From sequence record PZ452591.1: 64,000 bases of DNA; one strand, written 5' to 3'. Of the stretch, positions 8,050 to 64,000 are shown piece after piece (within the stretch, counting starts at the first letter, position 1; every line of letters starts with the position of its first letter). The notes under the pieces were generated by a model. It saw only the letters and a program-made list of their open reading frames with translations, searched no databases and was not told the origin of the DNA. The DNA comes from a phage. Made by a program: the position numbers and the translations under genes.

Positions 8050-8052
8050 TGG

Positions 8053-23508: not shown

Positions 23509-23561
23509 CCTCATGTTATGTCAGTAAGAATACTATAACACAACACGAGGGACTTGTAAAC
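23509..23561 (-). repeat. 53-bp direct repeat copy 1 (partner at 39034..39086)
   Basis: cctcatgttatgtcagtaagaatactataacacaacacgagggacttgtaaac versus copy 2 with about 3 mismatches. Confidence 0.8.
23525..23561 (-). promoter_or_regulatory. T4 early-promoter-like element (GTTTAC - 17 bp - TTATAGT) with leader and GAGGAA SD
   Basis: Minus strand GTTTACAAGTCCCTCGTGTTGTGTTATAGTAT...ACATGAGGAACACAAAATG. Confidence 0.6.
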
Positions 23562-35500: not shown

Positions 35501-36021
35501 GTTGATCCCAGCTCCTTACTTTCAACGTTTTTAACTAATTTGACAGAAACTAATTCAGCATCTTGAGTAATCATTACCGGACCTTCTTCATACTCTTCAA
35601 GATATTCTAGAGCTTTCTTTTTAGCTTCTTCCTTCGTATCAGTTTGAGCATAGATATAAAACATACAACCAGTAATACCTACTACTTTCCACTTAATTTC
35701 TTTATCAGTTTTAATTTCAAATTTACTGACAGAATCATCTTTTTGAACTTCTTCGAAAAAAGAATATTCTAACATATAAGCAATTGAAAATAACGGGCTA
35801 TCTTTATAGCATTCACCCATTACATCAACAGCTTTATACCAGCAGTCATCAATTTCGCGTTTAATGCTAATAACATTTTTCGCAAGATCTATTTTTACTT
35901 TAAATGAATTTTCCCCAATAAACTGGGCAATTCGTTTATTAGCCCCGCAAGTTTCATTAAAAATATCTTTATACCCAGTTTTAAAGCGATAAACCTTATC
36001 TTCTTCAAACCATTCGCTCAT
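35491..36021 (-). CDS. Hypothetical protein, 176 aa
   Basis: ORF with early-promoter-like element upstream. Confidence 0.7.
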   Translation of the reverse strand: MSEWFEEDKVYRFKTGYKDIFNETCGANKRIAQFIGENSFKVKIDLAKNVISIKREIDDCWYKAVDVMGECYKDSPLFSIAYMLEYSFFEEVQKDDSVSKFEIKTDKEIKWKVVGITGCMFYIYAQTDTKEEAKKKALEYLEEYEEGPVMITQDAELVSVKLVKNVESKELGSTCC

Positions 36022-41883: not shown

Positions 41884-41934
41884 AAATTTTCCGCTTAGTT
41901 AATAGTTGGTGACTCGTCCGTGAGTCAAATTATA

Positions 41935-44756: not shown

Positions 44757-45617
44757 TTACACCGCCATCTTTCCTTTAATTGGCGGGTGAGATACATAGT
44801 TGTTAAGAACAAAATTATGCGGCTTTGCGAATTGACTCAACCAAAATACCTGCGATTCTGTGTCCCATTCATCAAATTCATCTGGAAATTTTAATTGCAA
44901 TTCGCATAAATCCATAGGTTCACGACGCAAAATTTCTTTACATTGTTCTACGTGATTCATATAGATATGAGTATTACCACCAGAAAATATCAAATCTCCA
45001 GGAATAAGATTACACATCTTAGCTACAATATGAACTAACGTAGCATATGATGCAATATTAAATGGAAGACCGAGGAAAACATCTACCGAACGTTGATACC
45101 ACTGCAAATCCAAATAGCCATTACGCACATTAAACTGATAGAACATATGACAAGGCGGTAATGCCATATATTTAAGTTCAGCTGGATTCCATGCAGAAAC
45201 AATTTGACGCCTATCATTTGGCAATTTTTTAATACGATCAACAACTTCTATAATTTGGTCTACACCGCCAAAATCGCGCCATTGTTTTCCATAAATTGGA
45301 CCAAGTTCACCGCTATGGTATCCTAAATCTTTTGCTTGATTTTCGTAATTTTCATCCCAGACTGTTTTGCCTTGAATTAATGAATCATGTTGAATTAATC
45401 GTAAATCATTGACATTTGTGCTTCCCGATAAAAACCATATTAGCTCAGCAATGCAAGCTTTCCAGGCGAGCTTCTTAGTTGTTACTGCAGGAAAACCTTT
45501 AGTTAAATCCCAGCGTAATTTAGTACCGAACAAAGCAATTGTTCCTGTGCCCGTTCGGTCATCGGTTTCATAGCCATTTTCAAAAATGTCTTTAATTAAA
45601 TCTTGGTATTGTTTCAT
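44757..45617 (-). CDS. td: Thymidylate synthase (286 aa), uninterrupted
   Basis: Matches T4 Td across full length as a single continuous ORF (no group I intron, no I-TevI ORF). Confidence 0.95.
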   Translation of the reverse strand: MKQYQDLIKDIFENGYETDDRTGTGTIALFGTKLRWDLTKGFPAVTTKKLAWKACIAELIWFLSGSTNVNDLRLIQHDSLIQGKTVWDENYENQAKDLGYHSGELGPIYGKQWRDFGGVDQIIEVVDRIKKLPNDRRQIVSAWNPAELKYMALPPCHMFYQFNVRNGYLDLQWYQRSVDVFLGLPFNIASYATLVHIVAKMCNLIPGDLIFSGGNTHIYMNHVEQCKEILRREPMDLCELQLKFPDEFDEWDTESQVFWLSQFAKPHNFVLNNYVSHPPIKGKMAV

Positions 45618-45662: not shown

Positions 45663-46010
45663 TCAATACGGTTTAGCATCAAATTTTCTCTCAATTTCAG
45701 GCGTGAAATATAATTCTTTACCGCGTTTGGAAAAGCGACCAATAATATGATAATTATTCTCATCAAACGTAATATTACCAATATCCATAGCTTTCAACCA
45801 AATATCGATATTTCTATCCAGCTTTATGTCAAAATTCCAATACGGAGAACTATTACCGAAAATACTGCAAGCGGATTCAGTGAAACAGCTACTATAAATC
45901 TTGTCTTTAGGAACTACTAATTGATAGACACCTTTAATAAACTGAGGACCCTGCCACTTTGGCTGTTTCGCGTCTTCTTCTAATAGAATAGGGTAATAAT
46001 TAAAATTCAT
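45663..46010 (-). CDS. Hypothetical protein, about 115 aa, lying between frd and td
   Basis: ORF-track start GTG; first ATG at 46010; not expected at the T4 frd-td junction. Confidence 0.55.
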   Translation of the reverse strand: MNFNYYPILLEEDAKQPKWQGPQFIKGVYQLVVPKDKIYSSCFTESACSIFGNSSPYWNFDIKLDRNIDIWLKAMDIGNITFDENNYHIIGRFSKRGKELYFTPEIERKFDAKPY

Positions 46011-46030
46011 ATTTTCCGTCACGCGTTATT

Positions 46031-49159: not shown

Positions 49160-49225
49160 TTTATTTCCTTTTTAATTTAATTAACAGTTGGTGCTATGAC
49201 ACTTTACCTCATAGCTGGCATAATT
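49160..49225 (-). promoter_or_regulatory. Gene 32 autoregulatory translational operator (pseudoknot plus UUAAA-repeat leader)
   Basis: mRNA-sense leader ...GCCAGCTATGAGGTAAAGTGTCATAGCACCAACTGTTAATTAAATTAAAAAGGAAATAAAATG matches the remembered T4 gene 32 operator. Confidence 0.8.
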
Positions 49226-49841
49226 CGCAATACTCTGGGTCTTCGAGAGGTATCCAACCTGAGTTGAAATACTTTACCATCGATTTAGCAGTTGTATCAG
49301 TTATATTTATATTACCTTTAACTCTTCGCCATCCAGGAGTTTTACCGTACAGATTAGAGGATAATAATAACTCATAATTCTCGTAAGCAATATGAGATAA
49401 TTTCCAAGACTCTATATTAGCTCGTGATGTTTTCCAAGGTCTAAAATCGTCACGGTTCATATAATTAGCCAATCTCATATGCTCTCTAACTTCCGGGTCT
49501 TTGGCTGGATGAGTTTCACCACTCACACCAAATCCACCACCAGCATATACCAGATTAAAATAGTCTGGATTATCTCTGGCATTTACTTCAAGTTGGTATT
49601 TTCGTTCTGCTTCAATAACATCCAAGTCATCATCAATTTGAATTATTTTAACGCTCGGTTTTTGAAGCATTAGCGCATTCAAAAATCTTTTTTGTTTACA
49701 TGAGCTCCAGTATTCCTTTCCGGAAGAGTCATATATTATTCCGTTCTCAAATGAGCAATTTAATTTACTACCGATATAGTAGTATGGCGGAGTCTTATTT
49801 TTGACACGGTCTTCAAATGTAAACCAATATACTATATTCAT
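49209..49841 (-). CDS. segG: GIY-YIG homing endonuclease, SegG-like (210 aa)
   Basis: N-terminal GIY-YIG-like motifs IVYWF ... YYYIGSK; located between genes 32 and 59 where T4 carries segG. Confidence 0.75.
   Translation of the reverse strand: MNIVYWFTFEDRVKNKTPPYYYIGSKLNCSFENGIIYDSSGKEYWSSCKQKRFLNALMLQKPSVKIIQIDDDLDVIEAERKYQLEVNARDNPDYFNLVYAGGGFGVSGETHPAKDPEVREHMRLANYMNRDDFRPWKTSRANIESWKLSHIAYENYELLLSSNLYGKTPGWRRVKGNINITDTTAKSMVKYFNSGWIPLEDPEYCELCQL
49304..49311 (-). promoter_or_regulatory. Late-promoter-like TATAAATA upstream of gene 32 (inside segG)
   Basis: Exact motif on minus strand about 145 bp upstream of gene 32. Confidence 0.5.
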
Positions 49842-49842: not shown

Positions 49843-50496
49843 TCAATACTTGCAAGATTTCACAGTTTCAATGAAAACACTTTTAGCTTTCTGTGAATCA
49901 ATATTTAAAATTTTTCTATAAGCCTTTAACTTTATAGAATAATTATTCCAGACTAAATTATCAGTCTGTTCATCATGTTTATCAATTATATTTAAAAACG
50001 AATCAAGCAAGATAAACGTCTCAAACGAAATTATGTTCGATTGCAGAAGTTTAAAAATATAACTTGACTGAACCTTTGGATTATATTCAAAGATTTCTTT
50101 AAAAGCAGAAACTTCAACTTTCTTACTAAAATAATAAATGTTGCGAATATCTTCTTCAAACTTAAATTTAATTTGCTTTAAGCGTCCGATATATTCACGA
50201 TAAAACACAAGTGCATCAGCGTCAGAGATGTCACCAATCCAAGCATCTTGGTTAGCAACCAAATTACTTATAAAGATTAAAGCAAGTTCCTTTAATTTAT
50301 ATTTTTCTGATAACTTCTGGAAAAAATACTTATCCCTTCGCTTTTGATAAGCGGCATCAGACACCCGCATGCACCAATTATACTTAATTACATCATACTT
50401 TCCATTCATATGCTGTTTTATCATTAAGTATAATTTATAAACTGATTTACCATCAATGTATCTTTCACCACCAGCAGGCATGCGGAGTTTAATCAT
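49843..50496 (-). CDS. 59: Helicase loader gp59 (217 aa)
   Basis: 217 aa, matches T4 gp59. Confidence 0.9.
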   Translation of the reverse strand: MIKLRMPAGGERYIDGKSVYKLYLMIKQHMNGKYDVIKYNWCMRVSDAAYQKRRDKYFFQKLSEKYKLKELALIFISNLVANQDAWIGDISDADALVFYREYIGRLKQIKFKFEEDIRNIYYFSKKVEVSAFKEIFEYNPKVQSSYIFKLLQSNIISFETFILLDSFLNIIDKHDEQTDNLVWNNYSIKLKAYRKILNIDSQKAKSVFIETVKSCKY

Positions 50497-50831
50497 AGCA
50501 GAAAATCTAGTGTATTAGTTTTTTCACAACGAACAACAGAAGGACGTAAAAGATTTTCGTCAATGGCTTCTGACTGAATTTTTTCAATTATACCCGAAGG
50601 AATAAATTTAGCAAATTGAGTTTCAGGAATAGAGTTTTCTTCCAAGAATGCTGTTGTAGCTTCAAGATAACTCATTCCAAACTCTTCTACCATTTTTTCA
50701 ATAATAAATCCGTTTTCTTGACGATCAAGAAGCTTTGCTATTTCATCCTTTTCTTTCTTGATTGAAAGTTCTTTTTCTGAAAGACCGGTCTCATCGACCG
50801 GACGAATATCATTTAGAGAAAACTGTGTCAT
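50493..50831 (-). CDS. 33: Late transcription co-activator gp33 (112 aa)
   Basis: Matches T4 gp33 from MTQFSLNDIRPV; ORF-track start is upstream TTG. Confidence 0.9.
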   Translation of the reverse strand: MTQFSLNDIRPVDETGLSEKELSIKKEKDEIAKLLDRQENGFIIEKMVEEFGMSYLEATTAFLEENSIPETQFAKFIPSGIIEKIQSEAIDENLLRPSVVRCEKTNTLDFLL

Positions 50832-51078
50832 AAAGTTCAACTACCTCTTCAGTTTCAGCTTCAAACACATCACGATTATCTTTATGATACAAAGCTAATA
50901 GACGATTAAACATCTTACCATCAACGCCAAGTTCATCTTTGGCACGAATTCGAATATCTTTAATCAGTTCATTATAACCGGAAATTTTCAGTTTATGGTC
51001 AGATGCTTCTTTAATAAATTTAGCCAAGTCTTCGCCATGGATAGCTTCATCAAATTCAACCATTTCTTTTTTAGCCAT
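50809..51078 (-). CDS. dsbA: dsDNA-binding protein DsbA (89 aa)
   Basis: 89 aa, position between rnh and 33. Confidence 0.85.
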   Translation of the reverse strand: MAKKEMVEFDEAIHGEDLAKFIKEASDHKLKISGYNELIKDIRIRAKDELGVDGKMFNRLLALYHKDNRDVFEAETEEVVELYDTVFSK

Positions 51079-51086
51079 TATTCACC

Positions 51087-52004
51087 TCAAAATTCATTAA
51101 TGCTATTAGTTAATTTAGAAAGACCCGCTTTTACAAAATATGAATAAATTTTGCCACGCGGTGGTAATTTATATGAATTATAGTAATTCACAATGTTTGA
51201 AGCAATATTATCAGGAATATAATCAAAATCAATTAGAACTAAATTTTCTTTATAACGATTATACTCAGATTCTGAGAGAAGCACCTTAGCTTGCTCACGA
51301 TCATTAGCAATAGCTTCAACGATTGAAGTTTTCATTGAAGGAGTCCGTTCACCTTCAACTCTGGTAAACCAAAAGTCAGAACGTACTTTAACTGAAGCAA
51401 CGTTATCCTTTTTGTCACCCTTAAGAATTTTAGTCATACAATCAATTTCAGCAGAACCGCTTTTAATTTTAACCCATTTCTTGTGCATCGGTGACCATTG
51501 CTTAACATTTGGATATTTGTGAAGTTGAGTAAAGTCACCGTCCGATGAAATGATTAAAATCTTATGTCCTTCTAAAGAGAACTTTTTAACAAGAACAGCA
51601 ATGTGGTCATCTGCTTCATACTTATCAATATCCATAACAATGTATGGCATATAAGCTTTCAATTCATCTATAACTTTATGACTGGATTCAAAATAACCTT
51701 CCCAGTCCCAAGTAGATTCTTCTCGTGCTTTTCCACGGTTTTTCTTATAATAATAAGCGAAATCACGACGCCAGTATCCAGATTTCGCGTTATCAATACA
51801 TAGTACAATTTTAGTGTATCCAAGCGTTTTTGCTTTTTTGACATTAAACTTAATTGAGTTCAATATCAAATGACGAACCATTGATAAATTAATTTTTTCT
51901 TTATCTGGGAAGTTTACCAGAGCAGTTGAAAGAGCAATTTGACTAAAGTCAATAAAGCAAATTCCTTCTTTGTAATCTTCATCCAGCATCATTTCTAAAT
52001 CCAT
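51087..52004 (-). CDS. rnh: RNase H / 5'-3' exonuclease (305 aa)
   Basis: Matches T4 RNase H from MDLEMMLDEDYKEG; ORF-track start is upstream TTG. Confidence 0.92.
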   Translation of the reverse strand: MDLEMMLDEDYKEGICFIDFSQIALSTALVNFPDKEKINLSMVRHLILNSIKFNVKKAKTLGYTKIVLCIDNAKSGYWRRDFAYYYKKNRGKAREESTWDWEGYFESSHKVIDELKAYMPYIVMDIDKYEADDHIAVLVKKFSLEGHKILIISSDGDFTQLHKYPNVKQWSPMHKKWVKIKSGSAEIDCMTKILKGDKKDNVASVKVRSDFWFTRVEGERTPSMKTSIVEAIANDREQAKVLLSESEYNRYKENLVLIDFDYIPDNIASNIVNYYNSYKLPPRGKIYSYFVKAGLSKLTNSINEF

Positions 52005-52066
52005 ATGAACCTCGTTCAATTAGTGAGATTTCTATTATATACTATCTAAATCTTAAAGTAAACAGG

Positions 52067-52074
52067 TATAAATA
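52067..52074 (+). promoter_or_regulatory. T4-type late promoter TATAAATA (gene 34)
   Basis: Exact motif about 35 bp upstream of gene 34. Confidence 0.7.
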
Positions 52075-52108
52075 CTTATTATTGAAAACACAATAGGAGC
52101 CCGGGAGA

Positions 52109-55100
52109 ATGGCCGAGATTAAAAGAAAGTTCAGAGCAGAAGATGGTCTGGACGCAGGTGGCGATAAAATAATCAACGTAGCTTTAGCTGATCGTACCGT
52201 AGGAACTGACGGTGTTAACGTTGATTACTTAATTCAAGAAAACACAGTTCAGCAATATGATCCAACTCGTGGATATTTAAAAGATTTTGTAATCATTTAT
52301 AATAATCGTTTTTGGGCAGCAGCGGATAATATTCCAAAACCTGCTGGAAATTTTAATAGAATTCGTTGGAAAGCATTACGTACTGATGCCGTATATACAA
52401 CCGTATCATCTGGACCATATCAATTAAAATCCGGAGAAGCAATTTCAGTAGATACATCAGTTGGCAATGACATTGAGTTTACTTTACCACCTTCTCCGCT
52501 TGATGGAGAAACCGTAATAATTCAAGATATCGGTGGAAAACCTGGCATAAATCAGGTTAAAATAAATTCTTCAAATCAGAGTATTGTCAATTTTAGAGGT
52601 GAACAGGTACGTTCAGTTTTAATGACTCATCCAAAGTCACAGATGGTATTCATTTTTAATAATCGTTTGTGGCAAATGTATATTGCTGATTATAGCAGAG
52701 AAGCTGCGATTGTTACTCCATCGACTGCATATCAAGCACAATCTAATGATTTTATCGTACGTAGATTTACTTCTGCCGCACCGATTAATGTTAAGCTTCC
52801 AAGATTTGCCAATCATGGAGATATCATTAATTTCGTTGATTTAGATAAATTAAATCCACTTTATCATACAATTGTTACGACATATGATGAAACAACGTCA
52901 GTGCAAGAAGTTGGAACTCATTCCATTGAAGGCCGTACATCGATTGACGGTTTCTTGATGTTTGATGATAATGAGAAATTGTGGAGATTGTTTGACGGGG
53001 ATAGTAAAGCACGTTTACGCATTATAACAACTAATTCTAATATTCGTCCAAATGAAGAAGTTATGGTATTTGGCGCGAATAATGGAACAACCCAAACAAT
53101 TGAACTTCAGCTTCCGACTGATATTTCTGTTGGTGATACTGTTAAAATTTCCATGAATTACATGAGAAAAGGACAAACAGTTAAAATCAAAGCTGCCGGT
53201 GAAGATAAAATTGCTTCTTCAGTTCAATTGCTACAATTCCCAAAACGTTCAGAATATCCGCCTGAAGCTGAATGGGTAACAGTTCAAGAATTAGTTTTTA
53301 ATGGTGAAACTAATTATGTACCAGTTTTGCAACTTGCTTATATAGAAGATTCTGATGGAAAATACTGGGTTGTACAGCAAAACGTTCCAACAGTTGAAAG
53401 AGTCGATTCTTTAAATAATTCTACTAGAGCAAGATTAGGCGTAATTGCTTTAGCTACACAAGCTCAAGCAAATGCTGATTTAGAAAATTCTCCGCAAAAA
53501 GAATTGGCAATTACTCCAGAAACGTTAGCTAATCGTACTGCTACTGAAACTCGCAGAGGTATTGCAAGAATAGCAACTACTGCTCAAGTAAATCAGAACA
53601 CCACATTCTCTTTTGCAGATGACCTTATCATCACTCCTAAAAAGCTGAATGAAAGAACTGCTACAGAAACTCGTAGAGGTGTCGCTGAAATTGCTACGCA
53701 GCAGGAAACTAATACAGGTACTGATGATACTACAATCATCACTCCTAAAAAGCTTCAAGCTCGTCAAGGTTCTGAATCATTATCTGGTATTGTAACTTTT
53801 GTATCTACCGCAGGAGCTACTCCAGCTTCTAGTCGTGAATTAAATGGTACGAATGTTTATAATAAAAACACTAATAATTTAGTTGTTTCACCTAAAGCTT
53901 TGGATCAGTATAAAGCTACTCCAACGCAACAAGGCGCAGTAATTTTAGCAGTTGAAAGTGAAGTAATTGCTGGACAAAGCCAAGAAGGATGGGCAAATGC
54001 GGTTGTAACGCCAGAAACGTTACATAAAAAGACATCAACTGATGCAAGAATTGGTTTAATTGAAATTGCTACACAAAGTGAAGTTAATACAGGAACTGAT
54101 TATACTCGTGCAGTCACTCCTAAAACTTTAAATGACCGTAGAGCAACTGAAAGTTTAAGTGGTATAGCTGAAATTGCTACACAGGTTGAATTCGACGCAG
54201 GCGTCGACGATACTCGTATCTCTACACCATTAAAAATTAAAACCAGATTTAATAGTACTGATCGTACTTCTGTTGTTGCTCTATCTGGATTAGTTGAATC
54301 AGGAACTCTCTGGGACCATTATACCCTTAATATTCTTGAAGCAAATGAGACACAGCGTGGTACACTTCGTGTAGCTACACAAGTTGAAGCTGCTGCAGGA
54401 ACATTAGATAATGTTTTAATAACTCCTAAAAAGCTTTTAGGTACTAAATCTACTGAAGCACAGGAAGGTGTCATTAAAGTTGCAACTCAGTCTGAAACTG
54501 TGGCTGGAACGTCAGCAAATACTGCTGTATCTCCAAAAAATTTAAAATGGATTGTGCAGAGTGAACCTACTTGGGCAGCTACTACTGCAATAAGAGGTTT
54601 TGTTAAAACTTCATCTGGTTCAATTACATTCGTTGGTAATGATACGGTAGGTTCAACACAGCCATTAGAATCATATGAGAAAAATGGTTATGCAGTATCA
54701 CCATATGAATTAAATCGCGTATTAGCAAATTATTTGCCATTAAAAGCAAAAGCTGTAGATAGTAATTTATTAGATGGTCTAGATTCGCTCCAGTTCATTC
54801 GTAGGGACATTGCACAAACAGTTAATGGTTCACTAACCTTAACCCAACAAACGAATCTGAGTGCCCCTCTTGTATCATCTAGTACTGCTACATTCGGTGG
54901 ATCAGTTTCAGCAAATAGTACATTAACTATTTCTAATACTGGAACGGCAACTCGTCTGATTTTTGAGAAAGGACCTCAAACTGGAACAAACCCAGCTCAA
55001 ACGATGACAGTCAGAGTGTGGGGAAATCAATTTAGTGGGGAATCAGACACAACACGTTCTACCGTATTTGAAGTTAGTGATGAAACGTCTAGTCATTTTT

Positions 55101-55978
55101 ATTCTCAGCGTAATAAAGCTGGAAATATAACATTTAATATCAACGGTACAGTAACACCGATAAATGTTAATGCTTCAGGAACATTGAATGCAAATGGTGT
55201 AGCAACATTTGGTAATTCAGTCACTGCAACTGGTGAAATTATTTCTCGAAGCGCAAATGCTTTCCGTGCTATTAGCGGAAATTATGGTTTCATTGTTCGC
55301 AATGACGGGTCAGTAACGAATTTTATGCTTACTGCATCGGGTGATCAGACTGGCGGATTTAATGGATTGCGTCCTTTAGCTATTAATAATGCATCTGGCC
55401 AAGTAACGATTGGTGAAAGCTTAATCATTGCAAAAGGTGCTACTATAAGTTCGGGTGGTTTGACTGTTAACTCGAGAATTCGTTCTCAGGGTACTAAAAC
55501 CTCTGATTTATATACCCGTGCGCCAACATCTGATACAGTAGGATTCTGGTCAATCGATATTAATGATTCAGCCACTTATAACCAGTTCCCGGGTTATTTT
55601 AAAATGGTTGAAAAAACTAATGAAGTGACTGGACTTCCATACTTAGAACGTGGTGAAGAAGTTAAATCTCCTGGTACATTGACTCAGTTTGGTAACACAC
55701 TTGATTCACTTTACCAAGATTGGATTACTTATCCAACGACCCCAGAAGCACGTACCACTCGCTGGACACGTACATGGCAGAAAACCAAAAACTCTTGGTC
55801 AAGTTTTGTTCAGGTATTTGACGGAGGTAACCCTCCTCAACCTTCAGATATAGGAGCGATCCCATCTGATAATGGAATAATAGGTAATCTTACTATTCGC
55901 GATTTCTTGCGAATTGGTAATGTTCGCATTATTCCTGACCCAGTGAATAAAACTGTTAAATTTGAGTGGATTGAATAA
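52109..55978 (+). CDS. 34: Long tail fiber proximal subunit gp34 (1289 aa)
   Basis: 1289 aa as T4 gp34; internal repeats; late promoter upstream. Confidence 0.95.
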   Translation: MAEIKRKFRAEDGLDAGGDKIINVALADRTVGTDGVNVDYLIQENTVQQYDPTRGYLKDFVIIYNNRFWAAADNIPKPAGNFNRIRWKALRTDAVYTTVSSGPYQLKSGEAISVDTSVGNDIEFTLPPSPLDGETVIIQDIGGKPGINQVKINSSNQSIVNFRGEQVRSVLMTHPKSQMVFIFNNRLWQMYIADYSREAAIVTPSTAYQAQSNDFIVRRFTSAAPINVKLPRFANHGDIINFVDLDKLNPLYHTIVTTYDETTSVQEVGTHSIEGRTSIDGFLMFDDNEKLWRLFDGDSKARLRIITTNSNIRPNEEVMVFGANNGTTQTIELQLPTDISVGDTVKISMNYMRKGQTVKIKAAGEDKIASSVQLLQFPKRSEYPPEAEWVTVQELVFNGETNYVPVLQLAYIEDSDGKYWVVQQNVPTVERVDSLNNSTRARLGVIALATQAQANADLENSPQKELAITPETLANRTATETRRGIARIATTAQVNQNTTFSFADDLIITPKKLNERTATETRRGVAEIATQQETNTGTDDTTIITPKKLQARQGSESLSGIVTFVSTAGATPASSRELNGTNVYNKNTNNLVVSPKALDQYKATPTQQGAVILAVESEVIAGQSQEGWANAVVTPETLHKKTSTDARIGLIEIATQSEVNTGTDYTRAVTPKTLNDRRATESLSGIAEIATQVEFDAGVDDTRISTPLKIKTRFNSTDRTSVVALSGLVESGTLWDHYTLNILEANETQRGTLRVATQVEAAAGTLDNVLITPKKLLGTKSTEAQEGVIKVATQSETVAGTSANTAVSPKNLKWIVQSEPTWAATTAIRGFVKTSSGSITFVGNDTVGSTQPLESYEKNGYAVSPYELNRVLANYLPLKAKAVDSNLLDGLDSLQFIRRDIAQTVNGSLTLTQQTNLSAPLVSSSTATFGGSVSANSTLTISNTGTATRLIFEKGPQTGTNPAQTMTVRVWGNQFSGESDTTRSTVFEVSDETSSHFYSQRNKAGNITFNINGTVTPINVNASGTLNANGVATFGNSVTATGEIISRSANAFRAISGNYGFIVRNDGSVTNFMLTASGDQTGGFNGLRPLAINNASGQVTIGESLIIAKGATISSGGLTVNSRIRSQGTKTSDLYTRAPTSDTVGFWSIDINDSATYNQFPGYFKMVEKTNEVTGLPYLERGEEVKSPGTLTQFGNTLDSLYQDWITYPTTPEARTTRWTRTWQKTKNSWSSFVQVFDGGNPPQPSDIGAIPSDNGIIGNLTIRDFLRIGNVRIIPDPVNKTVKFEWIE

Positions 55979-55986
55979 GAGGTATT

Positions 55987-57102
55987 ATGGAAAAATTTAT
56001 GGCAGAGTTTGGACAAGGATATGTCCAAACGCCATTTTTATCGGAAAGCAATTCAGTAAGATATAAAATAAGCATAGCGGGTTCTTGCCCGCTTTCTACT
56101 GCGGGACCATATGTTAAATTTCAGGATAATCCCGTTGGAAATCAAACATTTAGTGCAGGTCTTCATTTAAGAGTTTTTGACCCTTCTACGGGAGCATTAG
56201 TTGATAGCAAGTCATATGCTTTTTCTGCTTCAAACAATACAACATCTGCCGCTTTTGTCAGTTTCATGAATTCTTTGTCAAACAATAGACTTGTTGCTAT
56301 ATTAACTAGCGGAAAGGTTAATTTTCCTCCTGAAGTGGTATCTTGGTTAAGGGGAGCAGGAACTTCAGTTTTTCCATCAGATTCAGTATTGTCAAGATTT
56401 GACGTGTCATATGCTGCTTTTTATACTTCTTCTAAAAGAGCTATTGCATTAGAGCATGTTAAACTAAGTAATAGAAAAAGCACAGATGATTATCAAACTA
56501 TTTTAGATGTTGTATTTGATAGTTTAGAAGACGTCGGAGCTACAGGATTTCCTAAAAGAACATACGAAAGCGTTGAGCAATTTATGTCTGCGGTTGGAGG
56601 AACTAATAATGAAATTGCGCGATTGCCAACTTCAGCTGCTATAAGTAAACTTTCTGACTACAATTTAATTCCTGGTGATGTTCTTTATCTTAAAGCACAA
56701 CTATATGCTGATGCTGATTTACTTGATCTTGGAACTACAAATATATCTATTCGTTTTTATGATGCATCAAATGGATATATTTCCTCGACCCAAGCTGAGT
56801 TTACTGGGCAAGCTGGGTCTTGGGAATTAAAAGAAGATTATGTAGTTGTTCCTGAAAATGCAGTAGGATTTACGATATATGCACAAAGAACTGCCCAAGC
56901 AGGTCAAGGCGGCATGAGAAATTTAAGCTTTTCTGAAGTATCAAGAAATGGCGGCATTTCAAAACCTGCCGAATTTGGCGTCAACGGTATTCGCGTTAAT
57001 TATGTCTGCGAATCGGCTTCACCTCCAGATATAATGGTACTTCCTACACAAGCCTCTTCTAAAACTGGCAAAGTGTTTGGGCAAGAATTTAGAGAAGTTT
57101 AA
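55987..57102 (+). CDS. 35: Long tail fiber hinge connector gp35 (371 aa)
   Basis: Matches T4 gp35 MEKFMAEFGQGYVQTPFLSESNSVRYKISIAG. Confidence 0.93.
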   Translation: MEKFMAEFGQGYVQTPFLSESNSVRYKISIAGSCPLSTAGPYVKFQDNPVGNQTFSAGLHLRVFDPSTGALVDSKSYAFSASNNTTSAAFVSFMNSLSNNRLVAILTSGKVNFPPEVVSWLRGAGTSVFPSDSVLSRFDVSYAAFYTSSKRAIALEHVKLSNRKSTDDYQTILDVVFDSLEDVGATGFPKRTYESVEQFMSAVGGTNNEIARLPTSAAISKLSDYNLIPGDVLYLKAQLYADADLLDLGTTNISIRFYDASNGYISSTQAEFTGQAGSWELKEDYVVVPENAVGFTIYAQRTAQAGQGGMRNLSFSEVSRNGGISKPAEFGVNGIRVNYVCESASPPDIMVLPTQASSKTGKVFGQEFREV

Positions 57103-57107
57103 ACTGA

Positions 57108-57134
57108 GGGAGCCTTCGGGTTCCCTTTTTCTTT
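57108..57134 (+). terminator. Rho-independent terminator after gene 35
   Basis: GGGAGCC-TTCG-GGTTCCC hairpin followed by TTTTTCTTT. Confidence 0.8.
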
Positions 57135-57141
57135 ATAAATA
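57134..57141 (+). promoter_or_regulatory. T4-type late promoter TATAAATA (gene 36)
   Basis: Exact motif directly after gene 35 terminator. Confidence 0.7.
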
Positions 57142-57164
57142 ATATTAAAATAAAGGGGCATATA

Positions 57165-57815
57165 ATGGCTGATTTAAAAGTAGGTTCAACTGTAGGTGGA
57201 TCTGTCATTTGGCATCAAGGAAATTTTCCATTGAATTCAGCCGGTGACGATGTACTCTACAAATCATTTAAAATATATTCAGAATATAATAAACCGCAGG
57301 CAGCTGATAACGATTTCGTTTCTAAAGCTAATGGTGGTACTTACACCGGTCCAATTACTATTAATTACGGGGTAAATAGTTATCTTCAATTAAGTAATAA
57401 TGAAACCCCCATTCGAATTCGTTCTGGTGGCGGTACCGGTAATACTCTTGTAGTTGGTGGCTCTTCCGGCGGTATTAGTTTTAGACCTGCAGGTAGTGAA
57501 ATCACTACTGGACAAATTACTATTACACCAGAAGGTTTGACAACATTTACCAGGGCTGTAACGGCTCCATCGGTAACTGTTACATCTACTCCTTCCGCAG
57601 CATCTGATGTTACTCGTAAAGATTATGTTGATGGAGCAATAAATACTGTTACAGCAAATGCAAACTCTAGGGTATTACGCTCTGGAGACACTATGACAGG
57701 AAATTTAACTGCGCCAAACCTTTTTTCACAGAATCCTGCATCTCAACCTTCACACGTTCCACGATTTGACCAAATCGTAATTAAGGATTCTGTTCAAGAT
57801 TTCGGCTATTATTAA
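57165..57815 (+). CDS. 36: Long tail fiber distal connector gp36 (216 aa)
   Basis: Size, position, late promoter upstream. Confidence 0.9.
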
Positions 57816-57823
57816 GAGGACTT

Positions 57824-60808
57824 ATGGCTACTTTAAAACAAATACAATTTAAAAGAAGCAAAACTGCAGGTCAACTTCCTGCTGCTTCAGTATTAGCCGA
57901 AGGTGAATTGGCTATTAATTTAAAAGATAAAACAATTTTCACAAAAGATGACTCAGGCAATGTTATAGAATTAGGTTTAAAATATGGAGGAACAATTGAT
58001 GGTTCTTTAACTGTTAATGGAAATATAATTGGAAATTTAACAGGTAACGCTGCAACTGCAACGAAATTAAAAACAGCACGAAAAATTAATGGTATATCCT
58101 TTGATGGGTCAAAAGATATCACGCTAACTCCATCTGACATAAATGTCAATAGCACAACGTTTATAAAAAATAATGGCGAATTACCTGTTGATGCTAATTT
58201 AGATACGTATGGGCCTGTTGAAGAATATCTTGGAGTTTGGTCGAAAGCAACTTCAACCAACGCTCAACCAGCAAATAAATTTCCAGAAGAAAATGCTGTA
58301 GGTGTGCTAGAAGTATTTGTGGCCGGTCAATTTGCTGGTACTCAGAGATATACAACTAGATACGGAAATGTTTATATTCGTTCCTTGACTGCTACATGGA
58401 ACGGAGTAAATGGTCCGTGGAGTGTGTGGCGAAATATTCAATCCGGTACTCGTCCACTGTCAACAACAATTGATCTTAATGATCTAGGAGGCGCTGAACA
58501 CTTTGGTTTGTGGCGAAATAGTTCAAATTCCATTGCTACCTTTGACAGAAATTTCCCAGAAGAGGGGTCGTCAGCTCAAGGTCTTTTGGAAGTATATGAA
58601 GGTGGAAACTATTCTCGTACACAAAGATATACAACCAGATTTGGTGTTGTATATACTCGTTGTCTTGCTGCCGCGTGGGATGCTTCCGCGCCTAAATGGG
58701 GACCGTGGCAACAAGTCGGTAATGTCACACCAGCGACTTTCTATGACGGAGATCTGAATGATTTTAAAACCCCTGGGTTATATAATATTTTAGGCACTGA
58801 TGCCGTTATTAACTGTCCTACAGGTGAAGGTTTGCCGACTGTTATTGTTGGTTTGCTGGAAGTTAAACAACGTGCTTCTGGCGGTGCTATTTTCCAAAAA
58901 TTTACTACTGCCGGAACGGGTGCAACTACTCGCGATCGTATTTTTGAGCGTGCATATACTGGTGGTGTGTGGGGTGCATGGAACGAAGTATATACATCTT
59001 ACTCTCTGCCAATTACTTTAGGTATGGGTGGTATTAAAACTCAATTAGCGGAGCTAGATTGGCAAACATTTGATTTTGTTCCTGGTAGTATGTTTAGCGT
59101 TCCTTTGAACAAAATAAAGAACATGCCAGCTAATATGAATTGGGGCACGATTGACGGAAACTTAATTATGTTTTCTGTTGGTCCTAGCGAGCACACCAGC
59201 ACAGGACGTACTGTTCAGGTTTGGCGTGGAACTGTATCCCAGACAAACTATCGTTATTTTGTCGTTCGTGTGTTCGGTAATTCTGGAAATAGAACTTGCA
59301 CAGTTCGCCGTGTTGTTCTTGAAGACGGATCACATACTTGGACTGCTAAACAAGATTTTAATGGCGCAGTTAACTTCGGTGCTCCTACCAATTTTAACTC
59401 TACTGTTAACCTTAATAACACTACCACATTTAAAACAGAAGTTAAATTTCGCTCATTGAATGCATTCCGTATGTATGGCGGAAAATTTGGTACATTTTTA
59501 CGTAATGATGGAGAGAGTCTTTATATTCTTTCCACCGACGAAGATGATCAAGATGGAAACTTTAATACAAATAGACCTTTCCGTTATGAATTAAGAACTG
59601 GTGATGTTACTTTGGGTGGTGCTAGTGGTGCTAACGTTTTAAAATTAAAACGTGATTCTCTCACCGCATTTTTTGGCGGTGATATTAACATTAAAGGCAC
59701 GATGACTTTTGACGCCGGACGTTTAGGATCACGAGATTATTTTAAATTTAACCATTGGGGTGATAGTAATAATGCGCGTGATAACATTATTCAGTTAGAA
59801 GACAGCAAAGGCGCTCATTTTTCCACTGAACGTACTTTAGCGACTGGTGCAATTAAGACTAAATTTTTTGGTGAAATTGAATCCGATGGTAAATTGGTTA
59901 TTAAACGTCCGGGTGATTCTATTGTATTATCAACAACTGCTAGTAATTCTTTGCATATTCGTGGTGACATAGACGGGACTGGTAACTGGTATATTGGTAA
60001 GGGTGGTGCTGATAATGGATTAGCGTTATATAGTTATGCTACTAATGCTGGTGTATACATTACAAACGCAGGAGATATCACGCTAAGTCCAAAAGGCGTC
60101 GAAATGGCCCATGTCAATAACGTTCGATTATATGTTCATGGTGAACGTTGGACTGCTAGTCAACCAGGTGATTGGGGTAGTCAGTGGCAAGTGGAAGCGC
60201 CAATATTCGTCGATCATGGTTATGTTTCACAGGATTGTTATTATCCAATTATTAAAGGAAGAAGTGTAATCACCAATCAAGGGTTTGTAACTGCCGTCGA
60301 TCTTGGTATTCGTCGTGTCAATAACAATTGGGGACAAGCAATTATTCGTGTTGGATCTGCGGAGGCATCGCCAGCGGCTGGACACCCTAACGCGGTATTT
60401 GAATTTCATTACGACGGTACTTTCTATTCTCCTGGTAATGGTAACTTTAACGATGTGTATATTCGTTCCGATGGTCGTCTTAAGATTAATAAAAAAGAGC
60501 TAGAAAACGGAGCACTTGAAAAAGTATGCCGACTGAAAGTTTATACATACGATAAGGTTAAGTCTATTAAAGATCGTAGTGTTATTAAACGTGAAGTTGG
60601 TATTATTGCTCAGGATCTTGAAAAAGAATTACCGGAAGCTGTGTCTAAAGTTGAAGTTGATGGATCTGATGTTCTGACAATTTCTAACTCTGCTGTGAAT
60701 GCTCTTTTAATTAAGGCTATTCAGGAAATGAGTGAAGAAATTAAAGAATTGAAAACGCCTCTCTTTACTAAAATTGCTCGCAAAATTAGTAAATATTTTA
60801 AATTCTAA
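57824..60808 (+). CDS. 37: Long tail fiber distal subunit gp37 (994 aa) with C-terminal intramolecular-chaperone-like domain
   Basis: N-terminus matches gp37 family; shorter than T4 gp37 (1026 aa); C-terminal about 110 aa ([21 protein letters not shown]...) resembles the self-cleaving chaperone domain of T2-type fibers. Confidence 0.9.
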
Positions 60809-60814
60809 CAACAA

Positions 60815-60835
60815 GGGGGAAATGCCCCCTTTGGA
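60815..60835 (+). terminator. Hairpin after gene 37 (weak terminator or RNA-stability element)
   Basis: GGGGG-AAATG-CCCCC followed by short TTTGG, then GGAG SD of gene 38. Confidence 0.45.
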
Positions 60836-60844
60836 GTATAAATT

Positions 60845-61636
60845 ATGGCAGTAGTTGGAGTTCCTGGCTGGATTGGAAGTTCAGCCGCAAATGAAACAGG
60901 ACAACGCTGGATGAGTCAAGCGGCTGGTCAATTAAGATTGGGTGTTCCTTGCTGGATGAGTCAATTTGCAGGTCGCTCACGAGAAATTATTCACACGCTT
61001 GGAGCAGACCATAACTTCAATGGTCAATGGTTCCGAGATAGATGTTTTGAGGCAGGTAGTGCACCTATAGTGTTTAATATTACAGGTGATTTAGTATCAT
61101 ATTCTAAAGATGTTCCTTTATTCTTCATGTACGGAGATACACCAAATGAATATGTTCAGTTAAATATACATGGCGTAACGATGTATGGTCGTGGAGGTAA
61201 TGGTGGTAGCAATAGTCCTGGCTCAGCTGGGGGTCATTGTATTCAAAATAATATTGGTGGGAGACTAAGAATTAATAATGGCGGAGCTATTGCTGGCGGC
61301 GGTGGCGGCGGTGGCGGCGGCTACTGGAATGCCGGTATAACGAGATATAGATCTGTTGTTGGTGGCGGTGGCGGACGTCCATTTGGGGCGGCTGGCGGGT
61401 ATTCTGGAGGATCAGCTTCTACCGCGGGCACTTTGACTGGGGCGGGCATTGGTTCTAAACCGGGAAATGCGATTTATGGTGGAAACGGAGGAAATGTGGG
61501 ATCTGCTGGTGGAGCTTGTGGCGGAATCTCAGGCTCTCGTTATGCTCGTTATGGTGGCGGCGCTGCTGGTTATGCTGTCATAGGGTCCGCTCCAACATGG
61601 CAAAATGTTGGAGCAATATATGGTCCAAGAGTATAA
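60845..61636 (+). CDS. 38: Tail fiber adhesin gp38, T2/T6-type with glycine-rich motifs (263 aa)
   Basis: Conserved N-terminus [28 protein letters not shown] and multiple poly-Gly motifs separated by variable segments; unlike the 183-aa T4 gp38 chaperone. Confidence 0.88.
61315..61342 (+). repeat. (GGC GGC GGT)n glycine-codon microsatellite inside gene 38
   Basis: ggcggcggtggcggcggtggcggcggc encoding a poly-Gly motif; a shorter second run about 40 bp downstream. Confidence 0.8.
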
Positions 61637-61666
61637 TGTGAATAAATACCCTTAAAAGGAGGGTCT

Positions 61667-62323
61667 ATGGCAGCACCTAGAATATCATTTTCGCCCTCTG
61701 ATATTCTATTTGGTGTTCTAGATCGCTTGTTCAAAGATAATGCTACCGGGAAAGTTCTTGCTTCCCGGGTAGCTGTCGTAATTCTTTTGTTTATAATGGC
61801 GATTGTATGGTATAGGGGAGATAGTTTCTTTGAGTACTATAAGCAATCAAAGTATGAAACATACAGCGAAATTATTGAAAAGGAAAGAAATGCACGCTTT
61901 GAATCTGTCGCCCTGGAACAACTCCAGATAGTTCATATATCATCTGAGGCAGACTTTAGTGCGGTGTATTCTTTCCGCCCTAAAAACTTAAACTATTTTG
62001 TTGATATTATAGCATATGAAGGAAGATTACCTTCAACAATAACTGAAAAATCACTTGGAGGATATCCTGTTGATAAAACTATGGATGAATACACAGTTCA
62101 TTTAAATGGACGTCATTATTATTCCAACTCAAAATTTGCTTTTTTACCAACTAAAAAGCCTACTCCCGAAATAAACTACATGTACAGTTGTCCATATTTT
62201 AATTTGGATAATATCTATGCTGGAACGATAACCATGTACTGGTATAGAAATGATCATATAAGTAATGACCGCCTTGAATCAATATGTGCTCAGGCGGCCA
62301 GAATATTAGGAAGGGCTAAATAA
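61667..62323 (+). CDS. t: Holin T (218 aa)
   Basis: Matches T4 holin: N-terminal TM segment and large periplasmic domain, 218 aa. Confidence 0.93.
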   Translation: MAAPRISFSPSDILFGVLDRLFKDNATGKVLASRVAVVILLFIMAIVWYRGDSFFEYYKQSKYETYSEIIEKERNARFESVALEQLQIVHISSEADFSAVYSFRPKNLNYFVDIIAYEGRLPSTITEKSLGGYPVDKTMDEYTVHLNGRHYYSNSKFAFLPTKKPTPEINYMYSCPYFNLDNIYAGTITMYWYRNDHISNDRLESICAQAARILGRAK

Positions 62324-62596
62324 TTATTTGTTCGTATACATTTCTAGATATCGATATACACCCTCAAAACCCTCGTTGAATTCATCGATGAGGGTTTTCT
62401 TATCTTCTTGAGTTAATTCAGAAACAATTTTACGGAATGAATTCTGATTTAACTTTCTACCTTCATGCGTTACTCCAATCTCATTTAGAAATGCAATAAA
62501 ATTAGCACGATTTTCGACAATATCTTCTCTAGAAAATTTAATCAAAATAGATGCAACAGTAATAATTTCACGAACTGTATCAATATTTTTATTCAT
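62324..62596 (-). CDS. asiA: Anti-sigma-70 factor AsiA (90 aa)
   Basis: Matches T4 AsiA MNKNIDTVREIITVASILIKFSREDIVENRANFIAFLNEIG. Confidence 0.93.
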   Translation of the reverse strand: MNKNIDTVREIITVASILIKFSREDIVENRANFIAFLNEIGVTHEGRKLNQNSFRKIVSELTQEDKKTLIDEFNEGFEGVYRYLEMYTNK

Positions 62597-62607
62597 TGAC
62601 TATACCA

Positions 62608-62757
62608 CTCAATTAGTTGACTTTGTTATAATATCATCAGACGCTTGATTTGTAAACTGGTCTGTGTTATTTTCTTCAAAAATTTTTTCTACGAATTCCT
62701 TGAACGACTCACGTTCCTGAGCTACATTATGCTCGATTACCATTTCAAGATTATAAC
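62608..62757 (-). CDS. Small hypothetical protein, 49 aa, below ORF-track cutoff
   Basis: Manual translation MSYNLEMVIEHNVAQERESFKEFVEK...; ATGA start/stop overlap with upstream gene suggests translational coupling. Confidence 0.4.
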
Positions 62758-63036
62758 TCATTCGAAATAATCTTCAATTTCGTAATCATGGACATAAATC
62801 ATTATAGTTTTTAATACATCATCAATGCTTTTTCCTGGGGCTGGAATTACGTAGAAATATCCTGCTTTTGAGAGGTCTTTATAAGTTCCAATTAAGAAAT
62901 CGTTATTCTCAAGATGTAGTTCTTCAACTAATTCATTAATAATTGAATGGTATAAATTTGGTAGAAACTTATATAGCTTTTCTAGAATATCAATTTTGAT
63001 TGTATATTGAACCACGGACTGAGAATCAATAATCAT
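62758..63036 (-). CDS. arn: Probable Arn (anti-restriction, McrBC inhibitor), 92 aa
   Basis: 92-aa protein next to asiA as in T4; assignment from size and position. Confidence 0.5.
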   Translation of the reverse strand: MIIDSQSVVQYTIKIDILEKLYKFLPNLYHSIINELVEELHLENNDFLIGTYKDLSKAGYFYVIPAPGKSIDDVLKTIMIYVHDYEIEDYFE

Positions 63037-63119
63037 AGACCTTCCCCTTATGTTTCTGTTTGCGATTAGATTCTTTAAACGCTTTCTTCTTATCCTTATG
63101 AACAGAAGCTTTATTAAAA

Positions 63120-63338
63120 TTATGCTTTGCGACTAAATTGTTCATAGTGCTGAATTACCTCTCTTAAACATTTGCATGTGAATGAAAACTTTTTAGCTAC
63201 ACCACATTCAAATATATGTTCTCTTAAATCGCGTGTATCAGTATATCCCATCTCAACGATAAAATGTCGTATTAGATTTTTATCTTTATCGTTTAGAGAA
63301 TTAAAATAATCAGATTTTGAATTAATTTCCCTGGCCAA
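63120..63338 (-). CDS. Hypothetical protein, 72 aa
   Basis: ORF. Confidence 0.55.
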   Translation of the reverse strand: MAREINSKSDYFNSLNDKDKNLIRHFIVEMGYTDTRDLREHIFECGVAKKFSFTCKCLREVIQHYEQFSRKA

Positions 63339-63618
63339 ATTGAATCACCTTCAGTTGACGTTTTAGTTCTTTTATCATCTCTTCGTTCATTGCAATATAA
63401 AGATCGCGTAGAGCAGGTTTTAGCATTCCATTTACCGGAGAACTAAATGGGCATACATAATCTTTTCCTACGAGCTTTTTAGTGAATTCCATATCACAGA
63501 ACTTAAATCCCGGCTCATTGGTATAAATTCCCCAATTAGTTGACATCATTTTATTGGCATATTCTAGTGCCTTAATTTGATTCATAATTCCATCAATTTG
63601 AAACTTTTTAATATTCAT
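63322..63618 (-). CDS. Hypothetical protein, 98 aa
   Basis: ORF. Confidence 0.55.
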   Translation of the reverse strand: MNIKKFQIDGIMNQIKALEYANKMMSTNWGIYTNEPGFKFCDMEFTKKLVGKDYVCPFSSPVNGMLKPALRDLYIAMNEEMIKELKRQLKVIQFGQGN

Positions 63619-64000
63619 TAGTAAAGGTCCTCAGAGTAAAGTTCTTTTTCACTACCACCACGTTCAATACGTACTTGTCCAGCGTAAGTTGCAATAATCA
63701 TTGCTTCTTCACGTGTCCAATAATTACTATATTGGTCAATAAATCCTTGGTCATCATCACAAACTTGTTGAGTAACTAATTGAGGTTTAACTACATCTAA
63801 AACTTCTGCCATATCTTTAGAATAATGACGAGCACCTGGAATAATAAGAGTTCGTCCATCTTTTAATTTAAAACGGTTGGCTGCACAGACAATTCGTCGT
63901 TGATACTTTTGGTTTTCATCCCAATATGCAGTCTGCCAACAGATTTCAGGAACTTCTGTGAGAATATCTTCTTCGGTACATTTATAACCATGCGCTTTAA
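63618..64000 (-). CDS. Hypothetical protein, 3' part only (N-terminus beyond window end)
   Basis: Reading frame of the 64-aa ORF stays open upstream to the window edge and lacks an SD before its internal ATG. Confidence 0.5.

Follow-up and report, generated by a model that had tools for sequence, protein, structure and literature searches.

Among T-even phages, the predominant long tail fibre tip is of the adhesin form (PMC3157838, PMC6851490). In T2 and T6, gp37 is processed and then capped by gp38 (PMC3157838), and the S16 structure has gp38 attaching to gp37 via three tryptophans, with the distal loops formed by hypervariable segments (HVSs) binding the receptor (PMC6851490). Adsorption of phage Mi is OmpA-dependent; its adhesin does not recognize Tsx despite a T6-like HVS1, and effects of LPS may, according to Trojet et al., be indirect (PMC3157838). 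The same source indicates for PST that regions outside the HVSs, such as the gp38 N terminus, also affect receptor choice (PMC3157838).

The window analysed here is a 64,000-nucleotide stretch of phage DNA (PZ452591.1), in which genes 36, 37, 38 and t follow one another on the same strand.

57165–57815, plus strand: gene 36 (gp36, 216 aa), distal hinge connector, T6-like (open reading frame; Pfam Phage_T4_gp36)
57824–60808, plus strand: gene 37 (gp37 precursor, 994 aa), distal half-fibre subunit (open reading frame; phrog_1699 over the full length, E = 8e-225)
60845–61636, plus strand: gene 38 (gp38 adhesin, 263 aa), capping the gp37 trimer and receptor-recognizing (Pfam, PHROG and PDB matches)
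61667–62323, plus strand: holin gene t, forming the conserved flank on the 3′ side (Pfam Phage_holin_T, E = 4e-117; 98% aa identity to T4)

This region very probably encodes the distal, receptor-binding end of a T6/M1-type Tequatrovirus long tail fibre, with self-cleavage of gp37, capping by gp38 and probable use of OmpA. The reading frames match exactly the lengths of 994 and 263 residues that a sequence-only reading had given for gp37 and gp38. PHROGs agree with Pfam for both proteins, and NCBIfam returned a match for neither. A protein collection search found the exact gp36 sequence to be common across Tequatrovirus; that of gp37 has no copy in a 15-billion-protein collection. Scanned over its full length, the window gave no Rfam or tRNA match. 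Small reading frames inside gene 37 (60227–60409, minus strand; 60303–60503, plus strand), which lie in another frame or on the opposite strand, were taken as chance occurrences.

The gp37 precursor is bounded by a conserved N terminus and a C-terminal chaperone.

57824–57978, plus strand: conserved gp37 N terminus (about 52 codons), the presumed gp36 junction and final part to share homology with T4 and T2 (blastn matches end at 57978 for T4 and 57973 for T2)
60467–60472, plus strand: predicted autocleavage site Ser882/Asp883 in YIRS-D-x-R-L-K (motif conservation; putative cleavage)
60470–60805, plus strand: Peptidase_S74 intramolecular chaperone (aa 883–994, 112 aa), with predicted release after trimerization (PF13884; match to the 6f45_A construct)

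Overall aa identity of gp37 is 96% to GADU22, 95% to BW-1, 91% to T6, 22% to T2 and 21% to T4. Only aa 1–66 align well with T4 gp37 (79% identity), and the C terminus does not align with it. Pfam places Gp34_trimer at aa 521–587 and, at the extreme C terminus of the 994 residues, Peptidase_S74 (PF13884, ‘chaperone of endosialidase’) at aa 882–940 (E = 1e-11; 45.4 bits against a cutoff of 22), bearing out the chaperone-like segment proposed from sequence. The S74 domain is present in T2 and T6 gp37 and absent from T4 gp37, which carries Collar and Phage_fiber domains; Pfam finds neither of these in the gp37 of the window.

The YIRS-D-x-R-L-K motif is invariant in this gp37 and those of T6, T2, M1, BW-1 and GADU22, aligns with ‘SSDRRIK’ of S16 gp37, and has its serine at the first position of the S74 model in Pfam (aa 882). 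The catalytic dyad of S74 domains consists of a serine and a lysine. Both S882 and K887, five residues downstream, are invariant in the six T-even gp37 sequences; a literature search on the Ser911/Lys916 dyad of S74 returned nothing. By analogy with related tips, gp37 would be made as a 994-aa precursor in which the S74 domain (aa 883–994) drives trimerization of the β-helical fibre and, once this is complete, cuts itself off after Ser882.

The second component, gp38, is a member of the adhesin family over its entire length (aa 1–263; phrog_2056, E = 7e-105). Pfam assigns Gp38_N (PF21721) to aa 1–42 (E = 4e-20, 71.9 bits, cutoff 25) and the GP38 adhesin (PF05268) to aa 47–263 (E = 4e-68, 230.1 bits, cutoff 25), and sequence matches in the PDB are to 9v85 (E = 3e-78) and 6f45_D (E = 1e-48). 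An AF2 model (pLDDT 87.2, pTM 0.81), whose input alignment was built without the locus-derived T2 sequence, matches these two structures only (E ≤ 1e-20, TM 0.72–0.85), and predicts the fold of 6F45_D and 9V85, which has three domains and a polyglycine-II sandwich. We found no similarity to T4 gp38, the best BLASTP match having E = 1.7 over 12 residues. The proposal that gp38 is a glycine-rich adhesin, and not a T4-type chaperone alignable over its full length, has therefore held up.

60845–60970, plus strand: gp38 N-terminal attachment domain (aa 1–42; W9, W22 and W37) (PF21721; tryptophans conserved in alignments)

Within this domain, all of 55 homologues keep W9 and W22, and W37 is invariant in a 15-sequence alignment. 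Further along, poly-glycine runs occupy aa 151–159, 173–177 and 237–239 (glycine makes up 39% of aa 115–245), and alignments of the C-terminal domain show invariant glycine columns flanking variable blocks. A tblastn search with gp38 covered aa 1–132 only, as the low-complexity filter masks the glycine-rich half, which was compared instead by MAFFT and by blastn (dust off) on fetched loci. Although the GC content of gene 38 is elevated (0.47–0.51), foreign origin was discarded as its cause, since glycine codons of the form GGN account for it. On the model of the homologous structures, one gp38 monomer would dock onto the newly exposed end of the gp37 trimer via its N-terminal three-helix domain (W9, W22 and W37), giving a predicted gp37:gp38 stoichiometry of 3:1, and the polyglycine-II sandwich would present the hypervariable distal loops for binding to the host receptor.

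Between genes 37 and 38 lie two short elements.

60812–60833, plus strand: G+C-rich hairpin in the intergenic region (sequence; RNA fold −14.7 kcal/mol, a weak z = −1.9)
60837–60844, plus strand: TATAAATT, a T4 late-promoter-like box with one mismatch, directly 5′ of the gene 38 ATG (sequence; putative function)

The Shine-Dalgarno GGAG of gene 38 is at 60833–60836. Perfect TATAAATA boxes lie 5′ of gene 34 (52067) and gene 36 (57134). Scanning 59800–62400 for sigma-70 promoters and terminators gave nothing exceeding shuffle expectation.

Within gene 38, dense mismatches to BW-1, GADU22 and T6 are restricted to 61321–61554, delimiting a specificity cassette that contains two tandem repeats.

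61294–61321, plus strand: poly-glycine motif G151–G159, (TGGCGGCGG)x3, the recombination boundary on the upstream side of the cassette (TRF; mismatch map)
61321–61554, plus strand: specificity cassette of 234 bp, HVS2–4, M1/Mi type (mismatch map against BW-1, GADU22 and T6)
61343–61354, plus strand: AGATAT repeat (Arg-Tyr) in HVS2, two units, the second mutated (DNA and protein alignment)
61536–61553, plus strand: perfect 9-bp tandem duplication in HVS4, CTCGTTATG x2, encoding SRYARY (TRF; alignments)

When BW-1 and GADU22, the closest relatives, are taken as reference, the 234-bp HVS2–4 cassette, with glycine-rich motifs at both ends, is the sole exchange with sharp limits. Its M1/Mi type is rare, occurring in 4 of about 800 gp38-bearing phage records; in the collections searched, three complete genomes have it, all of Salmonella phages, and in each the gp38 allele differs from that of Mi. 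The specificity domain is 92–93% identical to those of M1, UAB_60 and Manna and 47–66% identical to all other types, with HVS3 100% identical inside the M1 group and 28–41% identical to all others. Against M1 itself, the alignments show differences in the number of short tandem-repeat units in two of the loops. HVS2 has one AGATAT unit in UAB_60, two in this phage and Mi, and three in M1; Arg-Tyr units in HVS4 number one or two, the 9-bp duplication being absent in M1, UAB_60 and Manna.

M1 reportedly uses OmpA, as described by Montag et al. in 1987. Compared with the Ox2/FL08/AV119 group as with the FL18 group, the M1/Mi specificity domain is only 47–61% identical. A speculative reading, which we think rather doubtful, is that the M1/Mi HVS set is a third, independent gp38 route to OmpA, whose discrimination among the OmpA variants of E. 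coli, Yersinia and Salmonella is fine-tuned by slipped-strand changes in the copy number of the Arg-Tyr repeats.

All 263 residues of gp38 are identical to those of the phage Mi adhesin AET36511.1. This identity, together with the rare M1/Mi HVS set, indicates by analogy that the primary receptor is most probably OmpA, with some LPS dependence. The sequence-only reading had held that the receptor cannot be read from sequence; identity to the gp38 of an OmpA-dependent phage nevertheless allows it to be predicted. Hosts other than E. coli may lie within range, Yersinia being one for Mi; the other carriers of the cassette are Salmonella phages. The gp37 allele of the window is identical to no known one, a caveat on transferring the receptor from Mi.

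Use of Tsx, as in T6, might be expected from the T6-like character of gp34–gp37, the gp38 N terminus and HVS1: identity to T6 is 98–99% for gp34–gp36, 91% for gp37 and 100% for HVS1, and the nearest gp37–gp38 relatives, BW-1 and GADU22, have T6-like HVS2–4. The remaining segments of this gp38 are, however, only 20% (HVS2), 38% (HVS3) and 31% (HVS4) identical to those of T6, and the identical Mi adhesin is reported not to recognize Tsx (PMC3157838), making use of this receptor very unlikely. Hardly credible at all is a T4-like arrangement in which gp38 acts solely as an assembly chaperone and gp37 binds the receptor itself. Some database records do label T6 gp38 a ‘distal long tail fiber assembly catalyst’, but the gp38 of this phage is without similarity to T4 gp38 and can be matched from end to end with the adhesin family and with the two adhesin crystal structures, and the mature gp37 tip would be without the T4 Collar and needle domains. 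An OmpA-binding adhesin is the reading we prefer.

The origin of the tip needs to be considered against its genomic background. Over window positions 1–52108, nucleotide identity is 96.6% to T4, 96.4% to T6 and 95.9% to T2, which makes the supposed T4-type backbone a generic Tequatrovirus one, about equally near all three (~96%). Gene 34 has 97.6% nucleotide identity to T6 versus 89.4% to T4; gp34, gp35 and gp36, said to match T4 closely, share 91%, 95% and 66% of residues with T4 against 98–99% with T6 for all three. By sequence comparison, we regard the fibre operon as T6-like throughout. In blastn searches, neither T4 nor T2 gives a nucleotide match across the central part of gene 36 (57344–57585), and T4 homology is again missing over 57979–61641, returning at 61642. 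The expected breakpoint in the gp37 C terminus is thus replaced by one at gp37 codon ~52 (nt 57979), with the first break inside gene 36 (57344); there is no boundary at 59800 (about gp37 residue 660), where the module had been taken to start, S74 beginning at nt 60467. Of the label ‘T2/T6-type’, membership of the T2/T6 adhesin family stands, but the module is of T6/M1 type: T2 gp37 (1341 aa) is 22% identical and T2 gp38 52%.

Flanks 92–97% identical to T4, enclosing a stretch (57979–61641) without detectable T4 nucleotide homology, could be taken to mean that a T4-lineage genome recently gained a foreign T2/T6 tip (gp37 C terminus plus gp38) by horizontal transfer. The same pattern implies that module replacement separates the two lineages, and to that extent the proposed horizontal exchange of the tip was correct; exchange into a T4 genome, by contrast, inverts the likely polarity. 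Adhesin-type gp38 occurs in 805 phage records and the T4 type in 297, a number that includes distant lambda Tfa-like matches. With the adhesin type in the majority, the T4 tip is more likely the derived state. Recent acquisition is further opposed by a backbone equidistant from T4, T6 and T2, an entire operon nearer T6 from gp34 onward, breaks located within gene 36 and where gene 37 begins instead of in the gp37 C terminus, the predominance of the adhesin type (PMC3157838, PMC6851490) and a GC content (0.47–0.51) explained by glycine codons and not by foreign origin. We consider it improbable, and favour an ordinary T6-like operon in which T4 is the lineage that differs.

The system is one already known, and what is offered here is the correct annotation of an ordinary T-even fibre tip. 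The gain lies in the receptor call—a T6-like long tail fibre with an M1/Mi-type gp38 and OmpA as predicted receptor—which can serve host-range forecasting or the design of phage cocktails. A common bias is put right as well: in the T-even group it is T4 that is exceptional, so that finding a tip of the adhesin type in a Tequatrovirus is, alone, no sign of recent gene transfer.

Among described systems, phage Mi is the closest in gp38 (AET36511.1), from which that of the window shows no difference. Trojet et al. (2011, PMC3157838) present Mi gp38 as a chimera that combines a T6-like HVS1 with novel HVS2–4, and our HVS comparison agrees. The M1 record (X05676, comprising the 3′ end of gene 37, gene 38 and a gene t fragment) is 98.8% identical in nucleotides over 60053–61769. 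M1 gp38 (P08234) is 97% identical and shares the HVS set, and the C-terminal 251 aa of M1 gp37 are 99% identical; relative to M1, the gp38 of the window has three substitutions, one AGATAT unit fewer in HVS2 and an extra 9-bp unit (Ala-Arg-Tyr) in HVS4.

T6 (MH550421) is collinear over 51825–64000 at 94.3% nucleotide identity, and its gp37, also of 994 aa, has the S74 domain at identical residues. The two gp37 proteins differ in two divergent patches (aa ~200–300 and ~800–900, 72–78% identical), and the HVS2–4 of T6, which uses Tsx, are unrelated to those of the window. For genes 37–38, the closest complete-genome matches are the Escherichia phages GADU22, KK4 and BW-1 (95–97% nucleotide identity), a group that differs by a 6-aa indel at gp37 517–522 and by an HVS2–4 cassette that is T6-like, not M1-like.

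More distantly, the S16 gp37–gp38 tip (Salmonella phage, PDB 6F45) and the PP01 gp38 receptor-binding domain (PDB 9V85) have the three-domain gp38 fold in common with the window, and S16 gp37 also has the S74 domain. The gp38 proteins of S16 and PP01 are 45% and 63% identical, respectively; OmpC is the receptor in both cases, and the hypervariable loops are not those of the window. In T4, the positions of genes 37 and 38 are as in the window and the gp37 N terminus is conserved, but T4 gp37 binds the receptor itself by a Collar/needle tip without S74, and T4 gp38 is an unrelated chaperone.

The distal tip of the long tail fibre combines an adhesin-type gp38 with a gp37 that ends in a Peptidase_S74 (S74) domain. 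Both are encoded in a canonical T-even long-tail-fibre operon on the + strand, for which the lengths of gp37 and gp38 in an earlier sequence-only reading were exact.

Genes of the fibre locus (ORF scan), with amino acid identity of the product to its counterparts:
52109–55978, + strand: gene 34, 1289 aa (T4 91%, T2 90%, T6 99%)
55987–57102, + strand: gene 35, 371 aa (T4 95%, T2 95%, T6 98%)
57165–57815, + strand: gene 36, 216 aa (T4 66%, T2 64%, T6 98%)
57824–60808, + strand: gene 37, 994 aa (T4 21%, T2 22%, T6 91%)
60845–61636, + strand: gene 38, 263 aa
61667–62323, + strand: holin gene t

Perfect TATAAATA boxes lie upstream of genes 34 (52067) and 36 (57134). A G+C-rich hairpin directly 3′ of the gene 37 stop codon (within 60812–60844; −14.7 kcal/mol, z = −1.9) is followed by GGAG and TATAAATT; the latter deviates from the T4 late-promoter box at a single position and abuts the gene 38 ATG.

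Pfam places a Gp34_trimer motif (aa 521–587) and a Peptidase_S74 'chaperone of endosialidase' domain (aa 882–940) in gp37, and Gp38_N (aa 1–42) and GP38 adhesin (aa 47–263, E=4e-68) in gp38; PHROGs are consistent for both proteins. T4 gp37 carries Collar and fibre-repeat domains without S74, whereas S74 is present in the gp37 of T2 and T6. Sequence comparison found no similarity between gp38 and the T4 gp38 chaperone, and gp37 resembles T4 gp37 over its first 66 residues alone (79% identical; about 25% at best thereafter). With neither a T4 gp38 similarity nor a T4 gp37 C-terminal match, the proposed pairing of adhesin-type gp38 with S74-ended gp37 is confirmed.

Unmasked blastn of the locus (low-complexity filter off) delimits the exchanged region. 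T4 homology is continuous over 50000–57343, missing over 57344–57585 in mid gene 36, back at 57586–57978 (the end of gene 36 and ~52 codons of gene 37), then absent until 61642, six bases past the stop codon of gene 38. Divergence from T4 thus covers ~3.7 kb (57979–61641), plus the separate patch in gene 36, and the module start proposed at 59800 (1.8 kb) coincides with no boundary. The central third of gene 36 (57344–57585) shares no nucleotide homology with either T4 or T2 but is ~97% identical to T6, so the mosaic boundary of the fibre locus already falls inside gp36. T6 is collinear across the whole locus (94.3%); T2 resembles T4 here, its gp37 (1341 aa) being 22% and its gp38 52% identical to ours. 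Judged by identity, the fibre operon is specifically T6-like. The remaining backbone (1–52108) is nearly equally close to T4 (96.6% nucleotide identity), T6 (96.4%) and T2 (95.9%), and its closest complete genomes (ES19, ES21, Pinarejo and others) reach only ~97%; on these values it is of generic Tequatrovirus type, not the 'T4-type' first assigned. The close match of gp34–gp36 to T4 described earlier holds loosely for gp34 (91%) and gp35 (95%) and fails for gp36 (66%).

Adhesin-type gp38 occurs in 805 phage records and T4-type gp38 in 297, ~90 of the latter at <60% identity and including lambda Tfa-like proteins. The adhesin form has been described as predominant and T4 as unusual (Trojet et al., PMC3157838; Dunne & Leiman, PMC6851490). 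Of the horizontal exchange originally suggested, the data uphold a module replacement between this phage and T4 but do not support import of the tip into a T4 genome.

An exact-sequence look-up identified gp38 (263 aa) as identical to 'tail fiber adhesin [Enterobacteria phage Mi]' (AET36511.1), and it is 97% identical to M1 gp38. Mi was assayed on Keio mutants by Trojet et al. (PMC3157838), who reported its adsorption to be OmpA-dependent. Their description of Mi gp38 is reproduced by alignment with T6: hypervariable segment (HVS) 1 is 100% identical, HVS2–4 only 20%, 38% and 31%. Since receptor use is shared among closely related gp38 proteins (Lutz et al., PMC12032242), OmpA can be inferred as the probable receptor, which the sequence-only reading had considered beyond reach. 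By identity, the M1/Mi specificity domain is unlike both other OmpA-binding groups compared (Ox2/FL08/AV119, 47%; FL18, 61%).

Sliding-window identity and mismatch maps reveal a finer mosaic. Genes 37–38 are 95–100% identical to those of Escherichia phages BW-1 and GADU22, their nearest relatives (zero mismatches to BW-1 over 60905–61248), except in one block, 61321–61554, where identity drops to about 57–65%. This block, containing HVS2, HVS3 and HVS4, begins just where the poly-glycine stretch G151–G159, encoded by (TGGCGGCGG)x3 (61294–61320), ends, and stops at the GGG of aa 237–239, matching the exchange at glycine-rich motifs described before for gp38 (PMC3157838). Its counterpart is found in X05676, an old fragment of phage M1 that is 98.8% identical over 60053–61769 (blastn). 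The only other carriers in the phage database are three complete genomes, Salmonella phages Manna, UAB_60 and F13076. In Manna and in P0002, a protein from the gp38 comparison, the M1/Mi cassette is joined to a different N-terminal attachment domain (54–56% identical), showing that the two domains of gp38 reassort independently of each other. That all three complete genomes with the cassette belong to Salmonella phages hints that the M1/Mi adhesin type recognizes OmpA in several enterobacterial genera.

M1 gp38 differs by three substitutions and two indels, both indels being tandem-repeat copy-number changes inside loops. HVS2 is shorter than in M1 by a single AGATAT (Arg-Tyr) unit (ITRYRSVV; M1 ITRYRYRYVV; UAB_60 ITRYVV), and HVS4 has a perfect 9-bp duplication, CTCGTTATG x2 (61536–61553), giving SRYARY against SRY in M1. 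Such repeat-number variation could tune OmpA or host specificity, the sole point deserving wet-lab attention.

The S74 model starts at gp37 residue 882, and the motif YIRS882-D883-G-R-L-K887, invariant in the window, T6, T2, M1, BW-1 and GADU22, aligns with 'SSDRRIK' of S16 gp37. S74 cleavage presumably uses a Ser/Lys dyad, an assignment for which our literature search found no confirmation. T2 and T6 gp37 are proteolytically processed, then capped by gp38 (PMC3157838, citing Drexler 1986). By homology, a cut after Ser882 would free a 112-aa chaperone domain (nt 60470–60805) and leave a mature gp37 of 882 aa, onto which gp38 would then dock via W9, W22 and W37, the role given to these tryptophans in PMC6851490. 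The AlphaFold2 model of gp38 (pLDDT 87.2, pTM 0.81) matches only the two solved gp38 structures, PP01 9V85 (TM 0.72–0.85; identified via PMC12892980) and S16 6F45_D (TM 0.76–0.80).

Elsewhere in the window, the head-decoration protein Hoc (10985–12403, −) has 472 aa against 376 in T4; BLASTP aligns it in two overlapping registers, equivalent to one extra Ig-like/PKD repeat of ~95 aa, with aa ~96–190 duplicating the following domain. The mobile endonuclease set is unlike that of T4 (8004–8088, 13093–13144, 40705–41935, 44757–45617, 49209–49841), lacking segD between genes 23/24, segE between inh/uvsW and mobE between nrdB/nrdA; nrdB (392 aa) and td (286 aa) each form one unbroken ORF, hence without introns, I-TevIII or I-TevI. 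The 210-aa ORF at the segG position (49209–49841) aligns with T4, is absent from T2 and has no Pfam match. Tandem alt-like (ADP-ribosyltransferase) paralogues (23561–25618 and 25622–27679, −; each full-length, 685 aa) also occur in T6 and T2, whereas T4 has only alt.-1/alt.-2 remnants there; 23581–24934 has no T4 match, and a patch inside alt (26450–26861) has a match in T4 and none in T6 or T2. Two accessory ORFs absent from T4, 35491–36021 (−, 176 aa; also absent from T2) and 45663–46022 (−, 119 aa), have T6 positional counterparts ('RB32ORF214c' and 'RB32ORF229c') and are typical hyperplastic-region indels.

The exact gp37 sequence is absent from a 15-billion-protein collection, and the August 2025 INPHARED collection holds no record at ≥99% identity over 30000–54999 (best 97.0–97.5%), so the phage genome appears unrepresented in the collections searched. 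The gp37 allele alone is new, and it is 96% identical to its nearest match; gp38 is already public with its receptor experimentally assigned, and the original observation describes a textbook system correctly.
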